A stretch of DNA of 25,371 bases from an uncultured virus (IMG/VR IMGVR_UViG_651053001_000005) (IMGVR_UViG_651053001_000005:62001-87371), one strand, 5' to 3'; counted from the stretch's first letter, positions 1-17,371 are shown. Numbers and translations are program-made. Notes: generated by a model from the sequence alone, not told the origin.

Positions 1-997
1 TATAATAAAAATAAAATCCTAATTCATTTTCATCTTGATCCCTATTTGATAAGCTTTCCAATAATTCGTTAGCCTTGTCGAGATTATTATTTTTTATGTA
101 ATAAAAAGCCCTAAGCTGCTGATATTTGATATCATCTGATTCATAGTTAACCCATGGATTTTCCTTGTTCCATACGTTAGCTAGGAAGCAAAGAGCGCCG
201 TTTAGCATTTCTTTATGGGTATCATTAAGAACATACTTCTTTGCCTCAATATACGCCAGCATAGCTTCTTCATAGTTTTCGAAAATTAGGGTATTTCCTA
301 TAGTCAGATGCGCAAAAAAACATATTCGGTTCACATTGGACTGCATTATTGCAATATTTGAATGTTTCCTCGCTTCGATTAAATTGTTTTCATTTAAGCT
401 TATATTCGCTTGTAACATTGACACTCTACTTTTGTACGAATCTTTTATAAATCCTTCTGGCAAGCTGCTAAAATCTAAAAGTGTTAAGGTGCTTTTCATC
501 AATCCAAACTCACCAATATTCAAGTATTTATACATCAGCATTGCATCTGAGAAAAATGACATTTCTGGGGCTTTGCATCTTCCGCACTCTCTTATTGCTT
601 CTGGTATTGAGATTTCGTTTTTATAAAGCTTTCTATGTATGCTGTAGATGTTGCCCCATTCTTGACTTGTGGTGTTTTTTGAGTTGCTTAAATTTAAAAT
701 AATCTTGTCTGTTAACGTATCCCATTGATTAATATCTGAGTATTCAACAGACTGTCTTGCGCTTTTTTTATTGGGATCCAGTGATAAGAAGTAATCACTT
801 AGAAGCTGCTCTTCATTATCAGGAAACAAGCTTTTAACAATATTAATTAAACCGCCTAAGTTGTCCATTTCTTTCTCTGGGGTGTTGATGAATTTGTAAA
901 AACCATTAACCTTTTCGTACCCTGCTATTTTTGAGAGTTTCGCTGCGAGCTGGTTGTCTTTTTCACATTCATTCTTAATCATCTGCTTAAGATTCAT
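1..997 (-). CDS. aimR: Arbitrium peptide receptor AimR (RRNPP/TPR family), phi3T-like; 3' end outside window
   Basis: Manual translation from ATG at 997 (RBS GGGGTGGAG): MNLKQMIKNECEKDNQLAAKLSKIAGYEKVNGFYKFINTPEKEMDNLGGL...SARQSVEYSDINQWDTLTDK...ENELGFYFYY, open to the window edge. Closely matches the recalled phi3T AimR. Absent from the ORF track because no stop lies in the window. Confidence 0.95.
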   Translation of the reverse strand, partial: MNLKQMIKNECEKDNQLAAKLSKIAGYEKVNGFYKFINTPEKEMDNLGGLINIVKSLFPDNEEQLLSDYFLSLDPNKKSARQSVEYSDINQWDTLTDKIILNLSNSKNTTSQEWGNIYSIHRKLYKNEISIPEAIRECGRCKAPEMSFFSDAMLMYKYLNIGEFGLMKSTLTLLDFSSLPEGFIKDSYKSRVSMLQANISLNENNLIEARKHSNIAIMQSNVNRICFFAHLTIGNTLIFENYEEAMLAYIEAKKYVLNDTHKEMLNGALCFLANVWNKENPWVNYESDDIKYQQLRAFYYIKNNNLDKANELLESLSNRDQDENELGFYFYY

Positions 998-1038
998 TGG
1001 TTACTCCACCCCTTCCCAACTAATGTTCTCTTGTTTAT

Positions 1039-1088
1039 AATATACATTAGAGTTGTCAGAATTACAAGTATTTATTTTATTTTTATTC
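1039..1088 (-). promoter_or_regulatory. sigmaA-like aimR promoter with upstream 16-bp operator-like motif
   Basis: Minus strand TTGTAA-17 nt-TATATT, preceded by GAATAAAAATAAAATA (1073-1088). Confidence 0.6.
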
Positions 1089-1137
1089 TAATTATTTTTT
1101 AAGGAATACTTATCTGTTTGAAATTCGTATTTTATTT

Positions 1138-1159
1138 AAAAAAAAGGGGGATCGCCCCC
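1138..1159 (-). terminator. Intrinsic terminator after the HEPN gene
   Basis: 5-bp G/C stem with 4-nt loop followed by a T8 run on the minus strand. Confidence 0.7.
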
Positions 1160-1164
1160 GACTT

Positions 1165-2562
1165 TTATTTGTCCAGAATAATTTTTGCTTGTGAAAATTT
1201 TCGGTTTAAATTCCTGTTTTCTTTCATACTATTTAAAATGATTTCTTCATCCAATCCTATCTTTTTCAGGATTAAAAATGTTAATAGTCCATTCATTCTT
1301 AAGGAGGCGTAATATTTCTCAACTGCTCGATGGAAAACCTTAGTTTTGTTTGTTAGATCATAGTGAGTAAGATAGTTTCTAGTCTCAACAAGTCCAAAAA
1401 TAAAACTGTCCCTTTTTTTATTATTACCCGAAAGGAAGTTTTTTGTATCTGTTGATTGTTGATTAAATAACTCCTTTAGTCGCTTCATAAGATTAACTTC
1501 ATTAATATGCTTTAACTTATTTAAGAAAAATTGCTTATGGTCAACTGAAACATTAGAATTAATAAACTCTCTTACTTTTTCAGTTTCAAATGTTAGTTCT
1601 TGGTTAAATTCTAAGCTGGAGCAATATCTTCTGTGAAATATCTCTAAACACTGAATATTTTTAATGAATTTGGTTTCCACGAACTCTTTCTGATCTTTAC
1701 TGTTCATAAATAAACTAACTATTGTACTCAGCTTTTCTCTTTCTTGAAACCAGTTATTTAACAAAGTTTCATAATTGTGTCTTACCTTATTATAATCAAA
1801 CAAGAAATTTGTATTCTTCTGTTTAAGGGCTTCTCTGTGATGTTGAAAGTATTTATATTTCAATTGTTTTTTATCTTCTGTCACGTTTAATGTGATATTT
1901 ATATCGTAGTTAATGTTGTTCATTAGAATGTTTATAAGTCTAACCTGATGATTTACATTCTCATGAAACCATTTCAAATCTTTCCTTTCTGATGGGATTA
2001 TATTAAATCCACTAACATGCTCCATAGATACACACTGTCCAGATTTTTGATTCTTAATCTTTACCCCACTAGTTTCTTGTACTACAAAATCTTTGACTGT
2101 AACCTTGTTTATGTTTATTCTCTCATAATGTATTTCATGTTTTTCACCATTAGAGTCAAATATTTGAGTGAAGGCGCTCAAACCCATCCATTCTGTTAAA
2201 TTCCCAGTTGAAAACTCAGCAGAGTCAAATTTTTCTGGAAATGCCTCTGTGTAATCTCCTACTAAAAAGCTCCTAATTTCATAAACTGAAGTGGGTATTC
2301 CAGGTGATCTAAAGTTTGATTTTCCTATTGCAAGAACATCAAGTTTATACAATTCGCCATCTACTGATATTCCATTGATAACTTTTGGAGTGTCACCAAT
2401 ATCAATAAAGTCATTAACTAATGTACCCATTATCTCTAATGTGATTTCTTCTGGTTTATATATTAACGTACCTGGAACTTGATTTTCTTTATCTTTATCA
2501 ATCCACCAATACCCTTGTACAGAAAAAACATCAAAAATATCTTTATTTACTATGTTTTTCAT
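1165..2562 (-). CDS. ApeA-like protein (ApeA N-terminal domain plus C-terminal HEPN RNase); probable anti-phage defence
   Basis: 465 aa. N-terminal GYWW...VPGTLIY...ITLEIMG pattern typical of ApeA_NTD1. C-terminal HEPN with IQCLEIFHR helix and RxxxxH motif (ETRNYLTHYD). Confidence 0.8.
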   Translation of the reverse strand: MKNIVNKDIFDVFSVQGYWWIDKDKENQVPGTLIYKPEEITLEIMGTLVNDFIDIGDTPKVINGISVDGELYKLDVLAIGKSNFRSPGIPTSVYEIRSFLVGDYTEAFPEKFDSAEFSTGNLTEWMGLSAFTQIFDSNGEKHEIHYERININKVTVKDFVVQETSGVKIKNQKSGQCVSMEHVSGFNIIPSERKDLKWFHENVNHQVRLINILMNNINYDINITLNVTEDKKQLKYKYFQHHREALKQKNTNFLFDYNKVRHNYETLLNNWFQEREKLSTIVSLFMNSKDQKEFVETKFIKNIQCLEIFHRRYCSSLEFNQELTFETEKVREFINSNVSVDHKQFFLNKLKHINEVNLMKRLKELFNQQSTDTKNFLSGNNKKRDSFIFGLVETRNYLTHYDLTNKTKVFHRAVEKYYASLRMNGLLTFLILKKIGLDEEIILNSMKENRNLNRKFSQAKIILDK

Positions 2563-2728
2563 AACTAAACTCCTTTTGCAATTAATGATTTTAATAAGGG
2601 TTAATACTCAGAAGGGAGCTTGTTTGTTCCTTTTAATCACTCACTTAAGTCGTAAATACAACTTTAATTGTTTCTCTCTTTCAATTTATTTCTCTTTAAC
2701 ATGATTATTTCATGGCCTTACTCTACAT

Positions 2729-2860
2729 TTAAAGCCGCTTCCATTCAACATACTCAAATCGCTGCTGATAAAGTTCTTCAAGGATTGCGGCCCATTCAAC
2801 CCAGCCGTCCGCAACAATGCTTTTCTTCTCTCCATCCTCAATCCATTCAATCCAGTACAC
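2729..2860 (-). CDS. yopG: Small SPbeta protein YopG-like, 43 aa
   Basis: GTG start with RBS AAGGGGTG; MYWIEWIEDGEKKSIVADGWVEWAAILEELYQQRFEYVEWKRL; synteny yopE-yopF-yopG; below the ORF-track cutoff. Confidence 0.8.
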   Translation of the reverse strand: MYWIEWIEDGEKKSIVADGWVEWAAILEELYQQRFEYVEWKRL

Positions 2861-2871
2861 CTGAACACCCC

Positions 2872-3087
2872 TTACCGAGTAATAACTTCAATCTGTCTTA
2901 TAGCAGAAGTGACTTTAAACTCTGTATGTAGCTCGTTTGAGATCACTAAAGCTTCTGACATTGTAGTAAACTTAGAAGCGCCATGAAGCCCCTTAGATGA
3001 CTTATAACCACTACCATCCAACTTAAATGACCTGAAGTAATCATTATTTTCAAATTGAATGACAAAAAAGTTATCGATTACCGGCAT
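2872..3087 (-). CDS. yopF: SPbeta YopF-like hypothetical protein, 71 aa
   Basis: RBS GAGGGG; size and position between yopE and yopG. Confidence 0.75.
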   Translation of the reverse strand: MPVIDNFFVIQFENNDYFRSFKLDGSGYKSSKGLHGASKFTTMSEALVISNELHTEFKVTSAIRQIEVITR

Positions 3088-3089
3088 GA

Positions 3090-3341
3090 TTATCCCCTCT
3101 TCAGCAGCCCAACAATTTTTATCCCTAATGGCAGAAATCCAATTAGTATATAAAACACCATGATATTTATTTTATTCTTAAAGAACAATTCAATCATGTT
3201 TTGCTCCATTCCTGGTGAAAAGGAATTAATAAGCTCCTGTTTAAAATCCTCATCGTAAACTTGATCAACGAATAAGGCTTTAAATCCCGTCAGGAAGCCA
3301 ACACCAAGCCAGAGTATTAAGAAATACGAAAATCCAATCAT
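3090..3341 (-). CDS. yopE: SPbeta YopE-like small membrane protein, 83 aa
   Basis: Start moved to ATG 3341 (RBS AAGGAGGAGG); two hydrophobic segments; synteny. Confidence 0.75.
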   Translation of the reverse strand: MIGFSYFLILWLGVGFLTGFKALFVDQVYDEDFKQELINSFSPGMEQNMIELFFKNKINIMVFYILIGFLPLGIKIVGLLKRG

Positions 3342-3411
3342 AAAACCCTCCTCCTTATATACATCGTCTGGTATTATAGTAGAGTTAAATATCCTATGTA
3401 GGTGAATTTGT

Positions 3412-3594
3412 ATGGAAGAGAAAAATTTTGAGACAAATGGGTATGATGTTTCTGTCATTTACGATTATAAGGAGTACCCTGATGTTAAGTATGGTCGCTG
3501 TGACAACTGTGATTACACTCTGTTTAAGAGTTCAGTGAAAAGTGGCGTGTTTTTACGCGAGTGTCGTAGATGTGGGATGAAGAAGAGTATCTAA
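3412..3594 (+). CDS. Small zinc-ribbon protein, 60 aa
   Basis: RBS AGGTGA; CDNC...CRRC; divergent from yopE. Confidence 0.75.
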   Translation: MEEKNFETNGYDVSVIYDYKEYPDVKYGRCDNCDYTLFKSSVKSGVFLRECRRCGMKKSI

Positions 3595-3604
3595 ACACTC
3601 TTCT

Positions 3605-3889
3605 TCATTTATTTTTAGGCTTGATTTCAATTTCAAGATCTAAGCCGTCTAGAATTTTGAGTAAAGTGTCCACATTGTAGTTCTTACCGTTAGTAACTCT
3701 AATAATTTGTGGATGTTTTAAATTAACCTTTTCAGCTAATTTCCTGACTGAAAGCTTATTTTTATCTAGTCCATCTTTAATTGCATTAATGATCTTAAGT
3801 TTAGGTACAGAGATAGAATAATATTCTTCAGGAACTTCCATAATGTCTTCAATATTCATTTCAATAATATCGTCTTTATTTGATACCAT
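3605..3889 (-). CDS. XRE-family HTH regulator, ~94 aa
   Basis: LSVRKLAEKVNLKHPQIIRVTNGKNYNVDTLLKILDGLDL HTH; likely start ATG 3889; own promoter just upstream. Confidence 0.8.
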   Translation of the reverse strand: MVSNKDDIIEMNIEDIMEVPEEYYSISVPKLKIINAIKDGLDKNKLSVRKLAEKVNLKHPQIIRVTNGKNYNVDTLLKILDGLDLEIEIKPKNK

Positions 3890-3915
3890 AAATCCATCAA
3901 TCCTTTCTAGATAGA

Positions 3916-3945
3916 ATGGTACCATATGAGTTACCACTTTGCAAT
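3916..3945 (-). promoter_or_regulatory. sigmaA promoter with overlapping imperfect palindrome (candidate operator)
   Basis: Minus strand TTGCAA-17 nt-TACCAT with extended -10 TG; contains GTGGTAACTCATATGGTACCAT. Confidence 0.55.
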
Positions 3946-3948
3946 CTT

Positions 3949-4107
3949 TTATTTCACTGGAATCATGTAGCTTACATATACTTCAATTCCATCTTCAGTT
4001 CTATATTTTGCAATCTTGTCTGGATCAGATTCAATCTTTTCAATAAGTCGCTTTGCGCCTTTATTTCCCTTTTCACTATTGGTTACAGCAATCCAAGACC
4101 AATAATA
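3949..4107 (-). pseudogene. Possible 3' remnant of a gene lacking a start codon
   Basis: Open frame YYWSWIAVTNSEKGNKGAKRLIEKIESDPDKIAKYRTEDGIEVYVSYMIPVK* bounded upstream by TAA at 4108-4110; protein-like composition, no RBS or start. Confidence 0.4.
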
Positions 4108-4166
4108 TTAAAAAATAGATGCAGCTTTTTAGTATTAAAGCAAGTTCCCTGTCTTAATTTTTTCCA

Positions 4167-4649
4167 TTAACTATGTCGTTGATCAATAAACTCGCTTGCA
4201 TATCGGTATAGCTCTTTATATTCCGTTTCATCAACTGGAGACTCTATTAATTCAACCCCGTTCTTTACGGCAGTGTAGGTTCTTCCATCATGGGGATACG
4301 TTTCCCAGACAACTGGGATTGTAATATTTTTGAAGTTTGAAAGTTTTTTAGATTTTTTAAATTCTTCTCTTTCAGTTATCCTAGAAGCTGCGATGTCTAT
4401 TATCTCGCCATGCAGTAATACCCACATATGAAATTCGAACGGAGGATTCCACTTGTATTGAACTGGTAATGATGGAAATATAACTGATCCTGCTTTTAAT
4501 TTTGCATTTTTATTGTATTTCTCTTTCAATAAATCTTTTGTTAGATAAGATGTATAAACACACGCGTCGCCTATTCTTATCCCAGATTTATCAAAAGCAA
4601 AGAAAATACTTTCCACAATATTTTTTTGAATAAGCTCTTTATTGTTCAT
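4167..4649 (-). CDS. Hypothetical protein with transglutaminase/papain-like Cys-His-Asp pattern, 160 aa
   Basis: GDACVYTS...FHMWV...EIIDIA; RBS GGAGGGG. Confidence 0.65.
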   Translation of the reverse strand: MNNKELIQKNIVESIFFAFDKSGIRIGDACVYTSYLTKDLLKEKYNKNAKLKAGSVIFPSLPVQYKWNPPFEFHMWVLLHGEIIDIAASRITEREEFKKSKKLSNFKNITIPVVWETYPHDGRTYTAVKNGVELIESPVDETEYKELYRYASEFIDQRHS

Positions 4650-4681
4650 TTTGCCCCTCCGTAGTCGTTAAAAGAATGATT

Positions 4682-5071
4682 TTATTCAGTAACACCATTT
4701 TCATATTCAAGGTTGTATGTTGATATTTCGTGTACTCCTATATCCCCTGCAAAGTTTCCATCCTCATGTTCCTGTTGTAAATAAACCTCTTTATCTTTTT
4801 CGAAGATTTCTCTTGCTTCATCTAATTCAGTTACAGCTTGCGATCCCATTCGATCTGTTACAGTAAAAACTAAGCACCGTTTTAACTCGGTACCATCTTT
4901 AAGGACTACGTCTGCCATGACGTACCCATTTGGCTTTAGTTCGCCAATTTCATTACGTCTTTTATCGATTGCCTCTTGAAGAACCACAGAAACAGTATTG
5001 TTATCAGACTCACTTAAAGCCATTTCTAATTCTTCAATTTCCTCAAGTAACACTTGAATTTCCTCTCTCAT
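4682..5071 (-). CDS. Acidic phage hypothetical protein, ~129 aa
   Basis: RBS AAGGGAG; N-terminal coiled coil; part of the operon downstream of yopB. Confidence 0.8.
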   Translation of the reverse strand: MREEIQVLLEEIEELEMALSESDNNTVSVVLQEAIDKRRNEIGELKPNGYVMADVVLKDGTELKRCLVFTVTDRMGSQAVTELDEAREIFEKDKEVYLQQEHEDGNFAGDIGVHEISTYNLEYENGVTE

Positions 5072-5113
5072 TTTCATCTCTCCCTTTGTTGTTAAATGAA
5101 TCATTATCTCTAT

Positions 5114-5350
5114 TTAAGCACCCTGAGTATAGCCTGATTTGTCAATAGTTACGAGATGTTCAATGTCATCATAGTACTCTGCGTTCATGACCTCATATAT
5201 ATCAATCCCAAGATTCTTTTCCAAATTTCTTTTGGCATGTAAAACAATCATATTATCTGCATTAATACCATTAGGCATTTGTGGTACACCCGCATCTGTT
5301 TTGATTTCTACACCGTTTACATTGAAAGTTACTTTTACTGTATTTTGCAT
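5114..5350 (-). CDS. Phage hypothetical protein, 78 aa
   Basis: RBS AGGAGAGG; co-oriented operon. Confidence 0.8.
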   Translation of the reverse strand: MQNTVKVTFNVNGVEIKTDAGVPQMPNGINADNMIVLHAKRNLEKNLGIDIYEVMNAEYYDDIEHLVTIDKSGYTQGA

Positions 5351-5388
5351 TGTAACCTCTCCTATTCCCTATGAAAGTACGATTTTAT

Positions 5389-5766
5389 TTAAACATTGCA
5401 TTTAATATATTCGTCAAAATCCGGAAAGATAAGCCAGTCATTTGTCATCAGCTCATCCACTTTTTGCAAAAATTCTTTTGATCTGCCTTTCAATTTAAAA
5501 TCGCCGTCTCCTCCATAAAATTCGCTCAAGCCTTCATAACCGCCTGATTTGTAGTCTGATATAAAACATCTCCCATCAAAATTCCTATTGTTTCCTGCCT
5601 TTTCTGAATCTATAATTGCACGAGTTTCTTCCTCTATTGCTTCAAAATTGTAACTCTTTGCAATCCGATTTACCTCTGTCAATCTGGAGATGATTTCATC
5701 TGACCAGTTACCCCTCACATCTCTTAGAAGTGCTTCCATTAAGATGATTTCTTCTTGCTTTATCAT
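5389..5766 (-). CDS. Phage hypothetical protein, ~125 aa
   Basis: Start moved to ATG 5766 (RBS GAGGAGG). Confidence 0.8.
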   Translation of the reverse strand: MIKQEEIILMEALLRDVRGNWSDEIISRLTEVNRIAKSYNFEAIEEETRAIIDSEKAGNNRNFDGRCFISDYKSGGYEGLSEFYGGDGDFKLKGRSKEFLQKVDELMTNDWLIFPDFDEYIKCNV

Positions 5767-5797
5767 GGCCTTTCCTCCTCTAATTAAGTTTGTATTC

Positions 5798-5989
5798 CTA
5801 CTCCATAACCTTCCCTTCAAGTACAACCTCACTTGCAGTCCAAGTGATCTCATTAACTCCATTCTCATCCATCAAGGTTTTCGCTTTACTATCCGCGCTC
5901 ACTTTTAGGTCTTCCAAACTTTCGGCTTTAATTATATCGGCTAATAGCATATAGTCCTGATCGTAAAATTTTACTGAATAATCCTTCAT
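5798..5989 (-). CDS. Phage hypothetical protein, 63 aa
   Basis: Start ATG 5989 (MKDYSVK), RBS AAGGAGAG. Confidence 0.75.
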   Translation of the reverse strand: MKDYSVKFYDQDYMLLADIIKAESLEDLKVSADSKAKTLMDENGVNEITWTASEVVLEGKVME

Positions 5990-6071
5990 ATATTCTCTCT
6001 CCTTTTGTTGTAATGTGCGCTTTAACTTAACCTTGAAAATTTTCATTCCCTTACTTTTTTTGTAACTTTAG

Positions 6072-6098
6072 TATACCATGATCACTTTAAGTGATCAA
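6072..6098 (-). promoter_or_regulatory. sigmaA promoter overlapped by the perfect 19-bp palindrome TGATCACTT-T-AAGTGATCA
   Basis: Minus strand TTGATC-17 nt-TATACT with TG; palindrome at 6079-6097; second copy with 2 mismatches at 6336-6354. Confidence 0.7.
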
Positions 6099-6105
6099 TA
6101 TCTTT

Positions 6106-6309
6106 TTAATCTTTTTTGTAAATCAACAGCTCATGCAACTCAATATCTAAATATGTACAAACTTTATCAAGCAGATCCCTTGGATACCGCTCCATTTCGT
6201 CATGATACAGCTTTCTAACTGTGTTGAAACCATGGTCAATATCATTGGACAGCTTTCGAATACTGATATTCCTTTCGTCTAATATCGGCTTTAAATTTGA
6301 TTTAATCAA
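6106..6309 (-). CDS. yopB: Cro/C1-type HTH regulator, YopB-like
   Basis: [53 protein letters not shown] resembles recalled SPbeta YopB; TTG start with RBS GAGGT. Confidence 0.8.
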
Positions 6310-6364
6310 TTTAACTACCTCGCATTCATTATGTATGATCACTTTAAATTATCATTATATCCAT

Positions 6365-6390
6365 AAAAAAGGTCAAGGATATACCTTGAC
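6365..6390 (-). terminator. Intrinsic terminator
   Basis: Minus strand GTCAAGG-TATAT-CCTTGAC followed by CTTTTTT. Confidence 0.7.
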
Positions 6391-6402
6391 TATGTATTAA
6401 GC

Positions 6403-6840
6403 TTACCAATCAAATGAATCTTCATGTTCAAATCCATAAATACCTTTAATCCACACGTCTCCGCAGCCTGGATTCTTTGTAATCTCTAACACATGATTAC
6501 GATTTGCATCTCCCTCTACTCGATCTGCAGCAGTATAGTCGGCATAGTTCCCTACAAACTGCTTTTCACTACGTGGGAATACCCAGCCAGAAAGAGTTAT
6601 CCTACTGATTTTCATATTTAGAGTACACCCTTCAGCATTGTTAATTGTGAATTTGTAGAAGAGCCAAGTGCGATCAAAATTCCGATCAAAATAATCTGCC
6701 ATTGAAAAACTCTCTGAATCCTCACTCATGTGAAAATCCACATTTTTGTAGTCTAATGTAAGCTTCGCCTCAGCACTTGGTGTCGTGAAACACGAGATGA
6801 AACCAATGCAAATTACAGCCAAAAAGATTAGCTTTTTCAT
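6403..6840 (-). CDS. Secreted hypothetical protein, 145 aa
   Basis: Sec signal peptide MKKLIFLAVICIGF...AEA; RBS GGGGGAG. Confidence 0.8.
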   Translation of the reverse strand: MKKLIFLAVICIGFISCFTTPSAEAKLTLDYKNVDFHMSEDSESFSMADYFDRNFDRTWLFYKFTINNAEGCTLNMKISRITLSGWVFPRSEKQFVGNYADYTAADRVEGDANRNHVLEITKNPGCGDVWIKGIYGFEHEDSFDW

Positions 6841-7145
6841 TTACTCTCCCCCTTTTCCAAATTATACTATATTTGAAATAAAGGCGAAAGAACAGGCAGA
6901 AGCTTCGTGATTCATCTGTATTCTTCATGATATAGCTAGATATACATGTATCTATGAATATCTACATGTATTTATAAGTATCTATACCTCCCTACACCAT
7001 ACAAATATACCTTATTGAGAACAAAAAATAAATATTTTTGTTCATTTTAAAGAACAATTCTTCCATTTTTATGATATAATCATCACTGCTTATAGGTAGC
7101 CTTACTGCTTATTCGCCATATGGTATAGGAAAGAGGTTCTTAAAA

Positions 7146-8237
7146 ATGAACGTAAAGCATTTTAATTGTTTCTTTGTTATCAGGCTGTTTGCTGCTCTGT
7201 GTGTGCTGGTTGGCCATGCTACAAGAGACTTAAACATTTCTGTCTTTGGTTATACCCCAGAGAGTAAAGCATTGTTTCACACCGGCATATCAATCTTCTT
7301 TTTTCTAAGCGCATTTTTTCTTTTCACTTCTTATGAAAGATCCAGGCTTAAAGGAAATAATGTAACCGATTTTTATTGGAGCCGTATTATCAGGATCGCG
7401 CCCGCAATTTACACCTATGCTATTGCCTCCACCATCCTGTTAATTGTTCTAGGAGCTCTTTCATTAACAGTATTCACTACTAAAGAGTACTGGACATGGC
7501 TTCTTAGCAATTTTGTGTTATACCCTCAATACTTCCCTGACATATTCCATCACATTGGCACAGGTCGCCTTAACGATTCACTTTGGACAATTCCTGTTCA
7601 GATTAGCTTTTACCTTGTTTTACCCGCAATTTATTGGTTTTATAAACGTTTCGGATTCCAAAAAATGATTCTTTGCTCTTTTGCTGCTGCCGCTTTCAGT
7701 GTGTTAGTCTCTTTCATAATTTTAAAGTTCGCCCCTGGCAGTGTTTTCGGCAACCTGTACTTACATTCTTTCCTGCCGCAGATGTTTTATTTCACTTTAG
7801 GTATCTTCTGGGCTAAGGCATGGAGTAAGTCACCGCAGCACCTTGTTTTATTTTTATCGTCTGTTACTTTATTTTTATTCTGTAAAATTGACCCTTTACA
7901 TCTGAGCTCAATAAACAGCACATTATGGAGCTTTTCATGGTTCGTGCCTTTGAGTTATGCAATTGTCTGGTTCGGTTACAATGGGCCGAAGATATTTTGG
8001 CAGCTGAACCGGTTAGATGATATCAGTATGGGGATTTTCATATGGCACATGGTGATTATCAACGTCTTCCTATACACCGGAATTAATAAAACACTGTCTG
8101 ATTACCCGTTGATCATAGTTCTAATTGCTGTCACTGCTGCAATCGCATTTCTTTCGTACAGAATAGTGGAAAAACCCGCTCTTAAATTGCGTAATATCAA
8201 GAAAAACAAACCAGTCAAAACAAGGATTGCGAGCTAA
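7146..8237 (+). CDS. Membrane acyltransferase-3 (OafA/YrhL-like O-acyltransferase)
   Basis: IRLFAALCVLVGH, FFFLSAF, FYWSRIIRIAP, SLWTIPVQISFY, DISMGIFIWH, SYRIVEKP motifs; about 10 TM helices. Confidence 0.9.
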   Translation: MNVKHFNCFFVIRLFAALCVLVGHATRDLNISVFGYTPESKALFHTGISIFFFLSAFFLFTSYERSRLKGNNVTDFYWSRIIRIAPAIYTYAIASTILLIVLGALSLTVFTTKEYWTWLLSNFVLYPQYFPDIFHHIGTGRLNDSLWTIPVQISFYLVLPAIYWFYKRFGFQKMILCSFAAAAFSVLVSFIILKFAPGSVFGNLYLHSFLPQMFYFTLGIFWAKAWSKSPQHLVLFLSSVTLFLFCKIDPLHLSSINSTLWSFSWFVPLSYAIVWFGYNGPKIFWQLNRLDDISMGIFIWHMVIINVFLYTGINKTLSDYPLIIVLIAVTAAIAFLSYRIVEKPALKLRNIKKNKPVKTRIAS

Positions 8238-8311
8238 TGGCCAAGGGCTGTTCATGTAGGCAGCCCGTATCCCATTTAGCATGAAATGGTGTTTTTATTT
8301 AGAGTGCTCAG

Positions 8312-8689
8312 TTACTTAACCGCAACTTTTTGTACAAGTATAGAGTCCCAAATCCAAAAGATCAGGGCAAAAAATACGCTGAATAAATATATCTCATAAC
8401 TCGCTAATATAGACCCTATGGGATTATAAGGTTCAAAGAGAACGACCATGATTAGCCATACAACAAATGAAGACACTGTGTATATAAAGAGATAATTAAT
8501 ATTGAACCTTCTAGGTTTTCGGTTTAAGATAAGCTGCAATGGCAATTCAAAAATTAAATAACATGTCAACATGATCCCACTAATTATAAGATAAGGGACA
8601 TATTCAGCTTGATTCAGGATGATCACATATACCAGTGTGGCACATATGACCGACAAAATAAGGACAGCTAGGTATCTTACTGCAATCAA
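8312..8689 (-). CDS. UPF0715-like four-TM membrane protein
   Basis: YLIFELPLQLILNRKPRRFNINYLFIY pattern; TTG start with RBS AAGGGGAG. Confidence 0.7.
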   Translation of the reverse strand: MIAVRYLAVLILSVICATLVYVIILNQAEYVPYLIISGIMLTCYLIFELPLQLILNRKPRRFNINYLFIYTVSSFVVWLIMVVLFEPYNPIGSILASYEIYLFSVFFALIFWIWDSILVQKVAVK

Positions 8690-8786
8690 ATCTATCTCCC
8701 CTTAAACGCTGTATTTCATTCAAAGAACGAATTATCAAATTTAAATTTTAAAATTTTCATTGAAATTGCGTCAATATGGACTAAAA

Positions 8787-9341
8787 TTATAAACCAATCT
8801 CAATCGCTTTTTCATATGCTGAATGGAAAATGATTTTGTTATCTTTCCATTCGGCATTACCTACCCCTAACACATCAAGGTCGTCTTCACCCTCAGTATT
8901 TCGTGTCATAATATATACGGTGTCCTTATTCACTTTTCTCATTAAACCAGGGTATAAACTAGGAACATGCACATAAAAATCGTAAAAGTGATTCGTTTCC
9001 CCTAAGGTGGCGTTTCTATGCTCTATTGTTACTATTACATTTTTAGTTGGCGAAGAAATGGTACCGTATGAATCACCAGTTGCCACCAACAATGCAACTA
9101 TAAGTACCACTGGAATTGTTATGCAAATTACAAATAATCGCCGTATTTTATACCACCGAGCTAACACAAAAAAACCGACTAAAGTAAGTAGTACAGGAAA
9201 AATACAATTTGTTTCCAGCACAAAGCTTAAGTAATAACCATCATGAGACATCAAGAAAACAGCTAAATCAAATGCTAAAATCAAGACAAAGAAGATTGTT
9301 GCTGCATTTATTTGGCGCAATACTTTGTTTACCATATTCAT
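8787..9341 (-). CDS. Membrane protein (3 TM plus soluble C-terminal domain)
   Basis: 184-aa ORF with three hydrophobic stretches. Confidence 0.75.
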   Translation of the reverse strand: MNMVNKVLRQINAATIFFVLILAFDLAVFLMSHDGYYLSFVLETNCIFPVLLTLVGFFVLARWYKIRRLFVICITIPVVLIVALLVATGDSYGTISSPTKNVIVTIEHRNATLGETNHFYDFYVHVPSLYPGLMRKVNKDTVYIMTRNTEGEDDLDVLGVGNAEWKDNKIIFHSAYEKAIEIGL

Positions 9342-9351
9342 TCCCCATGTT

Positions 9352-9522
9352 TTATTTAATCTTAGCTTCTATTTGTACAAACTCTCCCAGAGGCTCAACA
9401 CATGCTACTTCGTACATGCAGTCGTCATATGTATTGAGTAGAACCTGTGTTTCCTCTGTTATTTGACTTCTCTCTAACATGGTTTGTAATGAATTTATTA
9501 GCTGCTTTATGTTCATAGACAT
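9352..9522 (-). CDS. Small hypothetical protein, 56 aa
   Basis: MSMNIKQLINSLQTMLERSQITEETQVLLNTYDDCMYEVACVEPLGEFVQIEAKIK; RBS AGGGGAG; fills the gap between neighbours; below the track cutoff. Confidence 0.7.
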   Translation of the reverse strand: MSMNIKQLINSLQTMLERSQITEETQVLLNTYDDCMYEVACVEPLGEFVQIEAKIK

Positions 9523-9525
9523 TAA

Positions 9526-9948
9526 TTAATCTCCCCTTTCTACTGAATTTCTCTGTATATTTCTTAGCCTTTTAGACAATGCCTGTTGATACTTCTTCCC
9601 TTCAATAGTTGCTGAACAATCAATTAGGTTAAGCGTGTGGCATTCTTTTTCAACAGTAGACAATAATTGATCACCTACATCACGATTAACCCATTTTTTA
9701 TGCCTTCTTTCTGCCATGTATGAAAAACCAAAATTATTTTGTGTGTGTAAATTCACTATACAGCTGGTTGATAAACTTTCGATTGCAGTTTTAGCAGCAA
9801 GAATTATTGATCTGTTTTGCGTTCGCTCTAAACAGGTGAAATATGTTTCTTTCATAATTCCTTTGTATCTAAATATCGCGATAGCTACCCCAGTTTTTGC
9901 AGGTGCTTTTTGTAGCACTCTGATAAAAATATCAATTTCTTTAGACAT
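9526..9948 (-). CDS. RNase HI-fold protein, catalytic acids apparently lost
   Basis: GVAIAIFRY...RTQNRSIILAAKTAIESLSTSCIVNLHTQN...VNRDV aligns by eye with RNase HI TNNRMELxAxIxALExL...VxLxTDS...NxDL. Confidence 0.6.
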   Translation of the reverse strand: MSKEIDIFIRVLQKAPAKTGVAIAIFRYKGIMKETYFTCLERTQNRSIILAAKTAIESLSTSCIVNLHTQNNFGFSYMAERRHKKWVNRDVGDQLLSTVEKECHTLNLIDCSATIEGKKYQQALSKRLRNIQRNSVERGD

Positions 9949-10131
9949 AATATCCACCTTTTCAAGATTTTATATTATATCTAATTATCACACATTTAGA
10001 CTAAAGCTCAATATATTTTTCGTTTTAGTCGTAGCCAACTTTTCACTCATCTTTATAGCATATCCGCTCCCTTTAAAAAAAGTGAGCGAAAGTATTTTAG
10101 TTTAGAATAATAACATTTAGTTATACATCTG

Positions 10132-10884
10132 TTAAGCTGGCTTACGCTTACTAATTAAATCGGTTATGTAGTCTGCACCTTTAGCAGTTAGATACGTTTT
10201 TGAAACATATCCAATCTTAGATGTTGGCACACTTTTAACTTCAAATAAACCACGACCCATATATTTCTGGTATGGAAGGTTATTTGCCATCAGGATTTTC
10301 TGATCCTTAAGAAAAGTGAATAACTTATTACGTCCAAATCCTTTGATATTTAATTCCTTAGCAAGTGAACCAATGTCCATTAGCCCGTCAGCGTCCAAGA
10401 ACTGATGATACTTCTCCACTTTTGGTTGATACTCAGTTACCTGCTGTTCCAAAAGGAGTTTTTCAGATTCAATTCTCTCACGTTCCTTTTGTTCTTGAAT
10501 CCATCTCTCTGCCCGTTGGATTGAGTTATCAATCATATAGGAAGGAACTAATTGTTTTTTAAGCTGTGTTTCCATTTCTTCAAACCGAGTGACATAATGT
10601 GCCGTAAACAAAACGCCTTTTGTGCCATTCATTTTATTAGCCACCATGTCGCAACCTTTACGTGTTAGAAGATAATACTTGTAGGATTTATTGTTGCCCT
10701 CTGTTTTATAGTGATCTTTAATGTAAAAATCCTGAGAGCGCAATTCTGCGCTTTCTAAAATTTGGATATGATTATGAATTGTTCTAAGAAATTCTTTATG
10801 TTCTTTCCCTACCATATCAGCCACTTCACGACTATCCATTAAAAGTTGTCCATCCCGTTCAATTACAGTTAAATTTTTTTCCAA
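10132..10884 (-). CDS. Rha-family / KilAC (ANT) phage antirepressor
   Basis: N-terminal DSREVADMVGKEHKEFLRTI...LLTRKGCDMVANKMNGTKGVLFTAHYVTRFEEME (Rha); C-terminal QPKVEK...IGSLAKEL...GRNKLFTFLK...PYQKYM...TAKG (ANT). Confidence 0.9.
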   Translation of the reverse strand: MEKNLTVIERDGQLLMDSREVADMVGKEHKEFLRTIHNHIQILESAELRSQDFYIKDHYKTEGNNKSYKYYLLTRKGCDMVANKMNGTKGVLFTAHYVTRFEEMETQLKKQLVPSYMIDNSIQRAERWIQEQKERERIESEKLLLEQQVTEYQPKVEKYHQFLDADGLMDIGSLAKELNIKGFGRNKLFTFLKDQKILMANNLPYQKYMGRGLFEVKSVPTSKIGYVSKTYLTAKGADYITDLISKRKPA

Positions 10885-11106
10885 TAAAATCCCTCCAATT
10901 AATTTGATTTATGTATATTTAGATCTTTATCAAAAAGTTTACATTTCACATTCAAATCACCCCCCTTACGTCCATTATCTTCTTAATAAAACAGCAACAA
11001 GAACCCTTATGATAAAAAGCTTTTAGAGGTCTGTTGTATCCTAAAAAAGAAGAATAACCATTAGGATTTTTTCAATTCATATAAAATATGCATTTTATTT
11101 AGATTC

Positions 11107-12903
11107 TTAACAAACAAGATCATGTTGCCTATACTCATCAAAAAACATATTACAGTGACCAATTTGACTAAGATACAGGCTCTCCTTAGGTCTTGTTACG
11201 CCGACATAAAATAATCTTGCTTCGTCTAAAAGATCGCTTTTTCTATGAGGAAACTTACCATCTTCAACCCCAATTAAGAACACATGTTTAAATTCTAGAC
11301 CCTTGCTTGCGTGAATAGTCATTAATCGCACCGCATTTTCATTTTTCTTTTTACTTGGCTTGTTGCCGTATACAAAATTAATGAACTGCTCTAAGTTATT
11401 ATTCTTAACAAATTTCTTCATGGTATTGAGAGATTCTTTTCTGTCAGTTATCTCATCTTCATCGAGGTATTTCTCTTCTATGTAATCATTCATTCTGAAA
11501 GTTTTAACTACATTGTCGATCAATTCTTCCACGGCAATCCCTTTAAGCACTTGCATTTGGAGTTTATTAATCATACTTTGGAATTTCAAGACGTTATCGT
11601 TTTGAGTCGGACGATCAAATCTCATATTTAACATGGCCTCATATAAGGACATATTTGTTTGTCCGGCAAATGACTCAACATCTTTTAAATTCTTATTGCT
11701 AAAATAACGAAATGGATCATTCCTTAGTGTGAAAATATCTCGAAAGGCTGCATCATCATGTGGATCACGAATTAATCTTAAATAAGCTACAATCCCTTTT
11801 ACCTCTTTTCTCTTGAAAAAGCTCCCATTATTAGTAATATCATATTCAATTTCACGCCTTTTTAATTCATTCTCAACATAGCTAGAATGAGAGTTTAATC
11901 TATAAAGGACACAAATTTCTGATGGTTTTTCACCGGCTTTAAGCAATGTTTCAATTTTATCAGCTGTATTCAGACCTTCTACTTCTCTGTCCTGATACGT
12001 TAGTGTTTGAATTTCGCCATTGTTATGAATATTAGGGACGGAGTCTGCGTAATGTTCATAGTCACCATAGTATTCCTTGATAAAGCTGTTTGCGTTATCA
12101 ACTATGTTTTTATTTGATCTATAATTTGTATCCAGGTTAATCACAGTGGCGTTTTCCCAATCCTTTTCAAACTCCATACAATACTCAGTATTGCCGCCTC
12201 TAAATGTGTAAATAGCTTGTCTATAATCGAATAAGCAGAATATGTTACCAGAGGCGCAAAGTTCTTTTAAAATGAGATTTTGTACTAAGTTAGAATCTTG
12301 ATGCTCGTCTACAAGAATAAATTCATACGTATACTTATGTTTATTGTTTTTTAGCACCTTGTAACACTCCAATAAATAATCATCATAATCGTACAGTCCG
12401 TTTTTGGATTTAAAAGCCTCATACTCCTTATAGAAGAGACGTAATTGCTCCTCGGTATATTTACTCTCTTTAATTAAAAACTCGTCTGTGTAGCCCCTTA
12501 AAAAGTTCTTTTGGTAGCTGATGAAACCCGTAATGTCTTTAATGTCAGGTTTCTCTTCAAGTGATTTAAAACAGTTTTCTCGCTGCCATTCTTTAATCGT
12601 ATTTTTCTCGTTAATTTCAATTCCCTCTTTGAGAAGAATGTTGCGGCATACTGAATGAAATGTACCTACATTCACACTAGTTAATTTCTGCTTATGTAAT
12701 TTCTTCTTAAGCTCATTTGCAGTATTACGCGTAAAACTGATGGCTAAAATATCCTCTTGATCTTCACCGTAATCCCTCACCAATGTTTTAACACGGTTAA
12801 GGAGAACGGTGCTTTTACCGCTCCCTGCCCCTGCAATGACTGCACAAGCCCCTTTATAAAAATTAATCGCTTCTAATTGTTGTTTGTTAAACTTTAGAGT
12901 CAT
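11107..12903 (-). CDS. UvrD/PcrA/Rep SF1A DNA helicase, 598 aa
   Basis: AGAGSGKS, TFHS, LVDEHQD, DYRQAIYTFRG, NYRS, VLYRLN, MTIHASKGLEF, EARLFYVGVTR. Confidence 0.95.
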   Translation of the reverse strand: MTLKFNKQQLEAINFYKGACAVIAGAGSGKSTVLLNRVKTLVRDYGEDQEDILAISFTRNTANELKKKLHKQKLTSVNVGTFHSVCRNILLKEGIEINEKNTIKEWQRENCFKSLEEKPDIKDITGFISYQKNFLRGYTDEFLIKESKYTEEQLRLFYKEYEAFKSKNGLYDYDDYLLECYKVLKNNKHKYTYEFILVDEHQDSNLVQNLILKELCASGNIFCLFDYRQAIYTFRGGNTEYCMEFEKDWENATVINLDTNYRSNKNIVDNANSFIKEYYGDYEHYADSVPNIHNNGEIQTLTYQDREVEGLNTADKIETLLKAGEKPSEICVLYRLNSHSSYVENELKRREIEYDITNNGSFFKRKEVKGIVAYLRLIRDPHDDAAFRDIFTLRNDPFRYFSNKNLKDVESFAGQTNMSLYEAMLNMRFDRPTQNDNVLKFQSMINKLQMQVLKGIAVEELIDNVVKTFRMNDYIEEKYLDEDEITDRKESLNTMKKFVKNNNLEQFINFVYGNKPSKKKNENAVRLMTIHASKGLEFKHVFLIGVEDGKFPHRKSDLLDEARLFYVGVTRPKESLYLSQIGHCNMFFDEYRQHDLVC

Positions 12904-12904
12904 T

Positions 12905-13507
12905 CTAAATAATTCCCCCTTTTGTTCCTTCTTCTGTTTTTTCTAAATATGTAAATAAAGCATTGACTTTCTCTTGTTGAAGTGAATTATTTTCATGCAT
13001 AGCTATGTATTCGTTAATTTTCTTGTCAATATATTTTCTGCTCGGTGTCCATCTTTTAACAATTTTCAAAGCAGCTTCAAAGTCATTAATGTTAATGCTC
13101 GAAGTATTAGGTACATTTAGAGCTTCAGATACTTTTCCATAGCATTGCATCAACAACCCTCTATAAAATAAAAGGTGTTCTGGACTGCCAATTGGTTTTA
13201 CATAATCAAACACTCTGCTTTTAGCAGCATTTTTAAACTCTAGAAATTTTCCTGATTTATCATGTTGGAAGGTAAAGAATGTTTCATCGTATTCTTTAAA
13301 CTTGCCTTCCATCTTTGAAATTTCTTCTGCATTTTCACTTTCTTTTAAAGACAACTGCTCAACTTGAAGTTCCAGCTCTTTTTGTTTATCAGCCATTTTT
13401 ATAAAATCTTCACTTAATCTATTAACTTTTAAACTTAATACCTTGTCCATGAGCATATCAATTTCTCCATTTGACATCTTGTTCAATTCCAATTCATTAA
13501 TCGCCAT
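12905..13507 (-). CDS. Coiled-coil protein with ORF6C-like C-terminal domain
   Basis: Start ATG 13507 (RBS GAGGTGG); ALNVPNTSSININDFEAALKIVKRWTP resembles ORF6C (FxVxSYxxI...F..A...I..W.P). Confidence 0.65.
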   Translation of the reverse strand: MAINELELNKMSNGEIDMLMDKVLSLKVNRLSEDFIKMADKQKELELQVEQLSLKESENAEEISKMEGKFKEYDETFFTFQHDKSGKFLEFKNAAKSRVFDYVKPIGSPEHLLFYRGLLMQCYGKVSEALNVPNTSSININDFEAALKIVKRWTPSRKYIDKKINEYIAMHENNSLQQEKVNALFTYLEKTEEGTKGGII

Positions 13508-13508
13508 A

Positions 13509-14429
13509 TTAAACCACCTCAATAATATTATTTTTATTCGTAATTTTTCTCATTTCTTTGCACCAGGATTCCACATGCCCGATTACAGAATCAAGATTGT
13601 TCATTATAATTTGATTGTCACTCATATCCCTAATGGCCTTTGCATACTTTACAGGCGCTAAACTACCTTTTAATACTTTTTCAATCTCCCAAACCATTTC
13701 AGAAAGCTCAGAAGTGGCCTCAACCTGCCTACCTAAATCATCCTGTTCTCTTGTTACAGCCTTTAATTTATTTGTTAGCTCCTCGTATTCTTTTACTTTC
13801 ACATCACTCCTTTCAAGTTGTTGCTCTAAGATCAATTTTTGTTTAGATATATTTTCATATTTTTTATTTTGATACTCTAATTCTTTTTTTAATGCGTCTA
13901 TTTGTTTGTAGTCAGTGTTATCAATGACTTTTTCAACAACTGTCTTCTTCTCCTTTTCTCGTTTTAATTTAGTTTCCAACAAACAATTATCCTCTTCAGC
14001 TTTCCTCAGCTTAGCTTCAAGCTCTTTGTATTCCTTTAGTGTTTTGACTTCACCATTTAGGACTGCTTCCTTAGCTTGTTTCTTTGGTTCGGTTGATTCT
14101 GATGAAGGTTTAGCTATTTCATATGTTAGAGATACTGGCAGGTCTTCGATTATTTTTTGGTCTTCGCAATTTGCGATGAGCTTAAATCTGTTGATTAATC
14201 TATAAACCAAGTCCTTTTTCAATCCTATTGAATTGCACCATCTTTCAAACAGTCCATTATACTGATTGTTTCCAGCTAACTTTTCTTGTGCTTCCTTTAG
14301 CTCTCTCCCCAGCTCTGTATAGGCCTTGCCAACAATCTCACGCATGTTAAATTCTTTTTGTTTAAGGAAATCAGCAGTTGATTGATCAACTAAATCATAT
14401 TTGAACTCTTTTGATAATTCATTTGTCAT
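13509..14429 (-). CDS. DUF3102-like DNA-binding and coiled-coil protein
   Basis: AYTELGRELKEAQEKLA...GLFERWCNSIGL...VYRLI pattern; long coiled coil; start ATG 14429. Confidence 0.7.
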   Translation of the reverse strand: MTNELSKEFKYDLVDQSTADFLKQKEFNMREIVGKAYTELGRELKEAQEKLAGNNQYNGLFERWCNSIGLKKDLVYRLINRFKLIANCEDQKIIEDLPVSLTYEIAKPSSESTEPKKQAKEAVLNGEVKTLKEYKELEAKLRKAEEDNCLLETKLKREKEKKTVVEKVIDNTDYKQIDALKKELEYQNKKYENISKQKLILEQQLERSDVKVKEYEELTNKLKAVTREQDDLGRQVEATSELSEMVWEIEKVLKGSLAPVKYAKAIRDMSDNQIIMNNLDSVIGHVESWCKEMRKITNKNNIIEVV

Positions 14430-14433
14430 GTCT

Positions 14434-15222: not shown

Positions 15223-15331
15223 GTTATGTATTCTCCTCTTTAAATTTTTTAAGTTTAATGCGCCCTTAAAACATTATATTTTATTTTTATTCTTAAAGTA
15301 TATTCACTTCACTGTTGCTTTAACTTGATTA

Positions 15332-15381
15332 GAGTATAGCATGAGTATTTAAAATTAACAATAGTTATTTTATTTTTATTC
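15332..15381 (-). promoter_or_regulatory. sigmaA promoter of the helicase operon with 16-bp motif upstream of -35
   Basis: Minus strand TTGTTA-17 nt-TATACT with TG; motif at 15366-15381, second copy at 15277-15292. Confidence 0.65.
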
Positions 15382-15564
15382 TAAAAAAAGAAGAACATAT
15401 TATCGAGGTTCAGCTTGCTGAAACGAGACGGCCGTAAAGGCACTTTACGGACGAATTTATTATTTTTTTATTTAATTATTTTTCTGGTTCTCCTTAAGAC
15501 TTAGGCTCTAAAACCCTTGATATGACTGGCTTATTTTTTAAGTTTAAGAGGTTTGTCCTCTTTA

Positions 15565-16782: not shown

Positions 16783-16812
16783 AATATAAACAGACTTCCC
16801 CCTTTAATATTA

Positions 16813-16848
16813 AAAATAAAGGAACGGATAAATGTTTTACCGCTCCTT
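16813..16848 (-). terminator. Probable terminator of the yonT-yoyJ-yonU unit
   Basis: Imperfect AAGGA(A/G)CGG stem followed by a T-rich tract on the minus strand. Confidence 0.5.
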
Positions 16849-16862
16849 CTCATGTATGAAAT

Positions 16863-17357: not shown

Positions 17358-17371
17358 GTTATAATATGGGT

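Follow-up and report, generated by a model that had tools for sequence, protein, structure and literature searches.

Cre and Flp act on heterospecific lox and FRT sites, engineered sets in which 13-bp arms surround an 8-bp spacer and a site pairs with a partner of the same spacer. Xer/dif core sites, and the pdif sites of Acinetobacter plasmid 'dif modules', the latter arranged in alternating orientation and bearing no individual labels in a conserved order, form a second kind of exchange site, and the attC sites of integrons are long imperfect palindromes folded from a single strand. The PeSLs of T4-type phages are described as a sigma-70-like promoter combined with a terminator stem-loop, and as recombining into mini-circles (Arbiol et al. 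2010, PMC2839356). For the SPbeta-like phages, MrpR is reported as a recombinase-fold repressor that binds SPBRE repeats, with ten chromatin affinity purification sequencing (ChAP-seq) peaks in SPbeta, all at SPBRE promoters (PMC10516654), and a SroF box, TTAAGAATAAAAATAAAAT, is given for phi3T (bioRxiv 10.1101/2025.11.27.690993). Here we analysed 25,371 nucleotides of an uncultured virus (IMG/VR IMGVR_UViG_651053001_000005:62001-87371; hereafter the window), which form the final 25 kb of one virus contig of 87,371 bp and carry a short palindrome at the junctions of their early genes. A literature search returned no description of this junction palindrome, whose copies are probably fixed, individually labelled crossover joints at which related phages trade genes.

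A 16-bp palindrome with fixed spacing at early gene junctions

Read on the gene (minus) strand, the strict core of the junction palindrome is the 16-mer TAAAA-N6-TTT(T/C)A, nested in a looser 28-bp imperfect palindrome, TCTAAATAAAA-N6-TTTTAnnnAGA. The window contains the following copies:

1119-1134, minus strand, junction palindrome core, TAAAA-TACGAA-TTTCA, centre TACGAA
4669-4684, minus strand, junction palindrome core, centre TCATTC
5372-5387, minus strand, junction palindrome core, centre TCGTAC, directly after the stop codon of open reading frame (ORF) 5389-5868
8282-8297, minus strand, junction palindrome core, centre ACACCA, with a TTTCA arm
11082-11097, minus strand, junction palindrome core, centre TGCATA, 10 nt past the stop codon of a UvrD-like helicase gene

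The sites are intercistronic and occupy the short gaps between co-directional early genes of SPbeta-like phages. The 1119 core is placed between the terminator of an ApeA/HEPN gene and the aimR promoter, and the 4669 core contains the stop codon of ORF 4682-5104 and is followed by the ribosome-binding site (RBS) of ORF 4167-4649. The upstream stop codon falls within TAAATAAAA at 9 of 17 sites, and the start codon of the next gene lies 8-38 nt downstream at 13 of 17, in agreement with the first-pass annotation of this DNA, which had placed its motif at gene junctions.

The motif is enriched well beyond its background. TRAAANNNNNATTTTATT has four exact matches in the window (1119, 4669, 5372 and 11082), all on the plus strand, compared with 0.05 expected, and none of 100 dinucleotide shuffles reached four; allowing one mismatch gave six matches (1.38 expected), by which the 8282 copy was gained. 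The cleanest control was a spacing scan of TAAAA-N(k)-TTTTA from k=0 to 15, in which local composition is held constant: the 87-kb contig holding the window has 23 matches at k=6 and 0-4 at any other k, and SPBc2 has 34 and 0-4, respectively. Per early arm (contig, SPBc2, phi3T, BUCT083 and SPbetaL3) the N6 count is 18-27 compared with 0-5 at other spacings, and across these five arms and five more distant phages the N6 excess over every other spacing is 5- to 30-fold. The sites are also oriented: AATAAAA-N6-TTTYA has 17 matches on the gene strand and a single match on the opposite strand. The enrichment over AT-rich background proposed in the first-pass annotation is thus borne out by both shuffles and spacing scans, and its 18-bp motif with an N5 spacer is redrawn as the N6 core within the 28-bp palindrome.

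Over 58 distinct slots the consensus is TCTAAA-TAAAA-N6-TTT(T/C)A-nnn-AGA, where the search itself fixed the TAAAA and TTT(T/C)A arms as invariant. Dyad symmetry of the outer TCT/AGA positions is seen in 27, 25 and 32 of the 58 slots, and the 6-bp centre is without an internal dyad (19, 14 and 15 of 58 slots complementary). A spacer of strictly 6 bp between two inverted arms is the geometry of a simple tyrosine-recombinase core site of the lox, FRT or dif type, a resemblance that had also been pointed out at first pass.

Three further matches in the window were examined and set apart from the sites above:

8703-8720, minus strand, weak look-alike, not counted as a joint, TGAAA-TACAGC-GTTTA, fails TAAAA-N6-TTT[TC]A
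2652-2669, minus strand, weak look-alike, not counted as a joint, TTAAA-GTTGTA-TTTAC, fails the strict core
3749-3764, minus strand, core match inside the helix-turn-helix (HTH) protein ORF 3605-3937, centre ATAAGC

The look-alikes at 8703 and 2652 had completed a first-pass list of seven sites, of which the other five are retained here; each deviates from the strict core at two or more positions, is not shared with relatives and is not used as a swap boundary. The 8703 sequence is common to none of nine relatives, no joint lies there and the contig of one relative (X18, see below) runs through it, so that the earlier picture of 8282 and 8703 bracketing exactly one gene is not upheld. The centre ATAAGC of the match at 3749-3764 occurs in none of the other nine genomes, and that match is probably due to chance. 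In the core scan no site was found at 11100-25371 of the window.

Each site carries its own centre in a conserved order

The 131 instances in the five early arms have 53 distinct centres, none of which occurs twice within one genome. Over the 58 distinct slots there are 58 different centres, and an identical centre is found at the same slot only; we use the centre as the address of a site. We compared the order of these addresses in ten genomes, including six added IMG/VR contigs that carry the helicase. Downstream of the helicase all ten genomes have TGCATA, CAACAA, CAGCAG, CATGGA, ACACCA, TCGTAC, TCATTC and further addresses in the same order, with no violation in 168 address-pair comparisons; TACGAA (1119) is also present in the IMG/VR loci L013 and L014, and ACACCA (8282) in L013, L014 and L015, with order unchanged. 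Between one shared address and the next, the content differed in 45 of 82 cases, was partly shared in 23 and was the same in 14; the TGCATA to TCGTAC interval, for example, differs between phi3T and BUCT083.

The sequences beside a shared address are frequently unrelated. Sites that share a centre form 150 pairs across genomes: 64 pairs have no homology on either side, 36 are homologous upstream alone, 18 downstream alone and 32 on both sides. At a non-homologous flank, identity ended 0-2 nt from the core in most pairs (upstream, 37 of 53; downstream, 61 of 80). At TGCATA (11082), the end of the helicase gene and the 16-mer are common to the window, phi3T, BUCT083 and SPbetaL3 and are followed by four unrelated downstream genes; megablast homology of the window to BUCT083 and SPbetaL3 begins exactly at 11082, and a protein-level check over five phages found five unrelated downstream genes. 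Likewise, the window neighbours of TCGTAC (5372) and TCATTC (4669) are unrelated at the protein level to those in phi3T, BUCT083 and SPbetaL3, and the 4669 16-mer is identical in BUCT083 and SPbetaL3 with both flanking genes unrelated.

A wider view of one address was obtained by scanning IMG/VR for TCGTAC, which matched 109 stretches; flanks were obtained for 80, and 77 loci, window included, had 350 nt on both sides. Of the 77, 26 have neither flank in common with another locus and probably represent chance matches or unrelated loci. The 26 loci that are linked to the window combine 4 kinds of upstream flank with 11 kinds of downstream flank in 14 combinations, and 21 two-by-two tables show three of the four possible combinations.

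To see how each part of the site diverges, we used pairs in which both flanks are orthologous and less than 85% identical (13 pairs, about 8 slots). Arms were 98.5% identical, the centre 93.6%, the outer 6+6 nt 69% and the flanks 74.8%. The centre, which the first-pass annotation took to be variable, is on this comparison under slot-specific constraint and not free; being kept at 93.6%, it is not explained by a protein that reads the arms only, nor by a hairpin loop.

Ends of homology between relatives cluster at the palindrome

All-against-all blastn of the five early arms located the ends of homology relative to the sites. The zone from -20 to +35 of a site, 2.0% of the sequence, contains 70 of the 383 right ends and 53 of the 379 left ends; the most frequent position of a right end is the last core base (18 at +15), and left ends cluster at -13 to 0. 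Just 2 of 383 right ends and none of 379 left ends fall inside the spacer. The predicted association of gain and loss breakpoints with the motif is found, with the pile-up at the edges of the 16-mer rather than in its spacer. Because gene junctions are breakpoint-prone anyway, junctions were compared with junctions: breakpoints were held by 57 of 84 junctions with the motif and 138 of 371 without it (odds ratio 3.6), and, for junctions with a gap of 25-120 nt, by 49 of 72 with and 55 of 123 without (odds ratio 2.6), counts that pool related genomes and are pseudo-replicated, with independence overstated.

Simple insertions and deletions between the five arms (n=44, many of them redundant and some of them introns or homing-endonuclease genes) had a site at both ends in no case, abutted one retained site in 11 and touched none in 33. 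At the insertion junctions the extra RBS-ORF unit lies directly after or before the site, with no second copy of the site.

Independent samples were provided by contigs of three RNA-library runs from three studies and of one metagenome, probably the source of the window, compared over window 1-13000; the RNA-library contigs bridge sites 1119-8282 and are uninformative on transcripts, their ends or their levels. The joints of replaced segments in these contigs are 1135->2731, 1140->2729, 3587->4669, 4106->4671 and 8303->11082. Of the ten segment ends, six fall just outside a window 16-mer, at 0-6 nt, and the 8303->11082 joint has a 16-mer at both ends; the motif-free ends are 2729/2731, at the stop codon of the small upstream ORF, 3587 and 4106. 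At 4669, replaced segments terminate at 4669 in one relative (X17) and at 4671 in another (X18). Two blocks are delimited in this way:

8304-11081, minus strand, five-ORF block between two joints, with joint 8303->11082 in the contig of relative X15
1136-2728, minus strand, swapped HEPN block, bounded at one end by the 1119 joint and at the other by a plain stop codon (2729-2731)

The first block was swapped whole in the relative, whose replaced segment begins after 8303 and terminates at 11082, with 2778 letters skipped and 526 others in their place. The HEPN block, which adjoins the 1119 core, is replaced from 1135 in X18 (1135->2731, with 1151 other letters) and from 1140 in X17 (1140->2729, with 1620 other letters); the HEPN gene is accordingly a swapped unit, as the first-pass annotation had it, with boundaries at 1135/1140 and 2729/2731 in place of the 2652 site named there. 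Taken together, the breakpoints at motif-bearing junctions and the ends of replaced segments accord with the earlier view that the sites mark places of gene swapping, and as places of gene shuffling they are well supported by the genomes compared.

Range of the motif across phages

The fixed spacing extends to five more distant phages, counted over whole records as N6/N5/N7: Geobacillus virus E3 (30/4/1), Staphylococcus phage SPbeta-like (17/1/4), Psychrobacillus phage Perkons (17/1/1), Goe11 (34/0/1) and Bacillus anthracis phage Chewbecca (13/3/2). Four unrelated phages of the same hosts showed no N6 enrichment, with N6 (N7) counts of 0 (0) in SPP1, 0 (0) in phi105, 0 (2) in SPO1 and 4 (3) in Staphylococcus phage K; among the phages counted, the motif is restricted to the SPbeta-like group and its relatives. 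Goe11 and the contig have many addresses in common, in unchanged order, and E3 has no exact address in common among the matches listed; for this reason the arms appear, from the genomes at hand, to be general and the addresses lineage-bound.

The palindrome differs from repressor boxes, promoters and terminators

MrpR-type operators are AT-rich repeats of the same phages. For SPBc2, a de novo derivation of the SPBRE from the ten genes with published peaks gave ACAAAWAATATGTATA, which occurs at just those genes. In the window this box has no match at up to two mismatches and one weak match at three. The MrpR ChAP-seq peaks, as published, do not lie at the 34 SPBc2 palindromes (PMC10516654). A second repeat, TTAAGA(A/G)TAAAAATAAAAT, is the reverse complement of the published phi3T SroF (MrpR-type) operator, and this phi3T-type box has nine window matches at up to two mismatches. 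The left arms of some joints are similar to this box. One of the nine matches is the 11082 joint itself, where 11092-11110, TTAAGAATCTAAATAAAAT, in the left arm of the joint, matches the box at 17 of 19 positions; the others are as follows:

1074-1092, minus strand, phi3T-type box
15278-15296, minus strand, phi3T-type box
15367-15385, minus strand, phi3T-type box
17640-17658, minus strand, phi3T-type box
20430-20448, plus strand, phi3T-type box
20650-20668, plus strand, phi3T-type box
13525-13543, minus strand, weaker phi3T-type box
16766-16784, minus strand, weaker phi3T-type box

Such boxes lie upstream of aimR, of a yonP-like ORF and of yonO. At up to four mismatches the 22-nt box core occurs 18-27 times per phi3T-type early arm and 6 times in SPBc2, from which the window phage appears to use phi3T-type repressor boxes, distinct from the junction palindrome, and not the SPBc2 SPBRE. 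Identity of the 16-mer with the SPBRE/SroF operator was rejected, as the sequence differs and the boxes sit at promoters and vary by phage type.

Identity as an RNA hairpin, promoter or terminator was rejected by folding and by promoter and terminator scans. Single-strand folding energies at the five window sites were 0 to -1.4 kcal/mol (z-scores from -0.63 to +1.0), no better than those of shuffles. None of 36 promoter-like matches in 900-11300 (shuffle mean 42.6) overlaps a 16-mer on the gene strand, and none of 15 terminator-like matches overlaps a 16-mer; site 1119 alone adjoins a terminator (1146-1159), which belongs to the HEPN block. Lazarevic's SPBc2 record marks one copy (2622-2651) as a stem_loop. 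The ComK box, whose spacing is N5, was also considered and set aside against the enriched N6 of the 16-mers.

Gene content of the window

The contig is collinear with the SPBc2 early arm from yonN to yotM, in reverse orientation. Pfam searches assigned the following genes:

2-997, minus strand, AimR
1165-2562, minus strand, ApeA-like HEPN protein (PF18862 and PF18739)
11107-12903, UvrD-like helicase
elsewhere in the window, Rha/KilAC antirepressor, YonO-like RNA polymerase, HU protein and several small unknown ORFs

Beyond the left end of the window lie genes for a YopP-like tyrosine recombinase, a YopQ-like (DndB) protein and an MrpR/SroF-like repressor. The ApeA-like HEPN gene has its own GC-rich bidirectional terminator hairpin (1146-1159), and its block stands just upstream of the aimR promoter. 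The YonO-like RNA polymerase is divided between two ORFs on the plus strand, 20685-22559 (624 aa) and 22906-23535 (209 aa), separated by a gap of about 350 nt; the phi3T annotation is likewise split (phi3T_60 and phi3T_59), SPBc2 yonO is a single 2520-nt gene, and an intron or insertion is possible. A TubZ/FtsZ-like tubulin (PF00091) is encoded at 18534-20014 on the minus strand next to a small winged-helix protein, and the two look like a phage tubulin partition or positioning pair. On the plus strand, 7146-8237 encodes an acyltransferase-3 family membrane protein, opposite in direction to the minus-strand early operon around it; this gene looks like cargo of the lysogenic-conversion type. 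Finally, an HU gene 81% identical to that of the window is found on a 133,358-base contig (L029) filed under a Streptomyces sp. assembly; its size fits an SPbeta-like phage genome, and it may be a Bacillus phage contig contaminating that assembly.

Candidate recombinases

Two tyrosine recombinase-like proteins, YopP-like and YomM-like, are both present in all five distant motif-bearing phages, so that presence or absence fails as a way to tell one from the other as the enzyme. The YopP-like protein (P0001; PF00589, 53.7 bits) is encoded in the sro operon, about 1.4 kb beyond the left end of the window, and by eye has the canonical R..HxxR..H..Y residues (ARTGGRKSE, HSLRNT and GH...Y). For YomM, a tyrosine recombinase-like protein of the tail operon, identity is 97.6-100% among SPBc2, phi3T and BUCT083 and drops to 56-82% in other genera. 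Both candidates have the SAM-like N-terminal domain that is typical of simple Xer-like recombinases. The sites themselves are spread along the 87-kb early arm.

Discussion

We consider it probable that the junction palindromes are fixed crossover joints, each labelled by its own centre. In the exchange we propose, two related genomes in one cell would trade the block between two joints by crossing over inside 16-mers of the same address. The common arms would be read on double-stranded DNA by a dimeric (two-part) phage protein, and identity of the centre between the partners would limit exchange to the same slot, by analogy with tyrosine recombinases acting on lox and FRT variants. The YopP-like and YomM-like proteins are candidates for the enzyme; short-homology annealing at a protein-bound palindrome is another possible route. 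In its fullest form the proposal makes these sites a natural counterpart of recombinase-mediated cassette exchange, in which a YomM- or YopP-like protein reads the arms, the centre serves as an address that confines recombination to the same slot of two co-resident genomes, and defence and counter-defence genes are traded slot by slot with gene order left intact. We put this form forward tentatively, as a possibility that may well prove wrong, and the same holds for its extension from SPbeta-like phages to the related ones of Geobacillus, Staphylococcus, Psychrobacillus and the B. anthracis group.

Several observations weigh against crossover at labelled joints. No recombinase or other protein is tied to binding or cutting the sites, and both candidates have drawbacks: the YopP-like proteins of the contig and SPBc2 are 32% identical, in spite of shared 16-mers and centres; SPBc2 YomM is not recognised by the Pfam catalytic-domain model; and in an alignment of the YomM family (L001:40301-41302 and five homologues) HxxK replaces HxxR in box II in five of six sequences (SPBc2, E3, Goe11, Staphylococcus SPbeta-like and Perkons), Chewbecca being the only one with HLLR. 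Swaps without the motif are common, as seen in the 138 motif-less junctions that hold breakpoints and in the plain stop codon at 2729 that ends the HEPN block. The genes are tightly packed and a replaced gene carries its own RBS and stop codon, by which boundaries are forced near the 16-mer whatever the mechanism. None of the TCGTAC two-by-two tables from the 26 linked IMG/VR loci shows all four combinations, the junction counts are pseudo-replicated as noted above, and contigs, being unable to reveal circles or rare joints, are silent on ongoing exchange. In laboratory hybrids of phi3Ts and SPbeta, 15 of 16 recombination sites are reported in long homologous regions (Dragos et al. preprint). 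We painted hybrids against their parents, and the Hyb2 crossover beside the GATCAA joint could lie anywhere within 1.4 kb that is identical in both; at this locus Hyb3 is like Hyb2, and Hyb1 is phi3T-like. The sole 'non-homologous' hybrid recombination site, given as 'following yosA' in the preprint of Dragos et al., might be the TATTCC joint (SPBc2 116415-116430).

Many of the same observations would fit a palindrome that is the binding site of a regulatory or architectural protein, for instance a dimeric HTH or a ParB/DndB-like protein such as YopQ, kept by purifying selection, with swaps ending there as a by-product: the palindrome would be the one conserved non-coding island separating exchangeable genes, and ordinary or illegitimate recombination plus selection would do the rest. 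Strict arms and spacing around a dyad-less centre suit a dimer on double-stranded DNA, gene packing would place boundaries at the edges of the 16-mer, the laboratory hybrids of the preprint recombine in long homology, motif-less junctions also hold breakpoints, and the insertions and deletions abut one site at most, without duplication. We regard this explanation as unlikely, for a reader of the arms alone leaves the conservation of the centre relative to its flanks unexplained, as it does the trimming of identity between unrelated flanks to exactly the 16-mer; furthermore, MrpR, the only phage protein profiled, has its published peaks at SPBRE promoters and at none of the 34 palindromes (PMC10516654).

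The integron-like mechanism of the first-pass annotation, in which an integrase would excise single-gene cassettes, each with its own site, as circles and insert them through crossover in a variable core, accounts for sites at the junctions of small accessory genes, for their arm-spacer-arm geometry and for a YopP-like tyrosine recombinase with an intact-looking catalytic set close to the window. It is nevertheless very improbable: the sites are fixed and ordered, and the absence of order violations means that they do not travel with genes; no insertion or deletion has a site at both ends, no centre is repeated within a genome, and 2 of 762 homology ends lie in the spacer. The conserved unit is moreover 16-28 bp, whereas attC is longer and folded. 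There is equally little probability, in our judgement, that the palindrome acts as an RNA hairpin that terminates, processes or stabilises polycistronic early transcripts. The location right after stop codons, the orientation bias and the SPBc2 stem_loop annotation speak for such a role; the near-zero folding energies, the lack of complementarity in the centre and the lack of overlap with terminator-like matches speak against it, and slot-specific conservation of a loop would be unexplained. Fixed, labelled crossover joints remain the reading that we prefer.

Defence and counter-defence genes are both found in the early arms of SPbeta-like phages; the ApeA-like HEPN gene of the window is an example of the first, and Gad1, annotated in SPbetaL3, of the second. 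To our knowledge, the clean exchange of these genes at gene borders has been without explanation so far. Ordered, labelled joints, if true, would give a testable rule for phage mosaicism that predicts which blocks move and where, would suggest what one of the two conserved tyrosine recombinases, both so far without a function, might do, and could be a source of ready-made orthogonal sites for the engineering of large Bacillus phages. The presence of the motif in phages of four further host groups takes it beyond a single-phage curiosity.

Comparison with known systems

Like the junction palindromes, the SPBRE/SroF elements are described as AT-rich, repeated intergenic elements of the same phages (PMC10516654; bioRxiv 10.1101/2025.11.27.690993); these boxes, however, are located at promoters and are type-specific, whereas the palindrome is identical and equally common in both phage types. 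The PeSLs are described as short intergenic repeats in hyperplastic regions of small non-essential genes, where they bound insertions, deletions and replacements between relatives (PMC2839356), and in these respects they are similar; the 16-mers differ in having neither promoter nor terminator and in being 16-28 bp palindromes with their own centres. Unlike with PeSLs, there was no sign of exchange between different slots in the genomes compared.

Integron attC/attI sites also are imperfect palindromes that border small, mostly promoter-less accessory genes and are served by an element-encoded tyrosine recombinase, but attC travels with its cassette and each insertion adds a site, whereas the 16-mers are fixed and insertions add none. 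Xer/dif sites share the 11-6-11 geometry in a 28-bp site and flank exchangeable gene modules, a likeness of geometry; in contrast to the alternating, unlabelled sites of pdif modules, the 16-mers are labelled and ordered. Heterospecific lox/FRT sets differ from the 16-mers, which have 5 invariant bp per arm and a 6-bp spacer and are putative sites known from genomes alone. Their same-spacer pairing would nevertheless have a parallel here, in that centres differ between slots and are kept within a slot, as a pattern in genomes and not a reaction. The two have in common inverted arms shared by all sites, a short spacer and an arrangement by which blocks could be swapped without scrambled order, and it is this arrangement that the ordered, never-duplicated addresses of the junction palindromes resemble.

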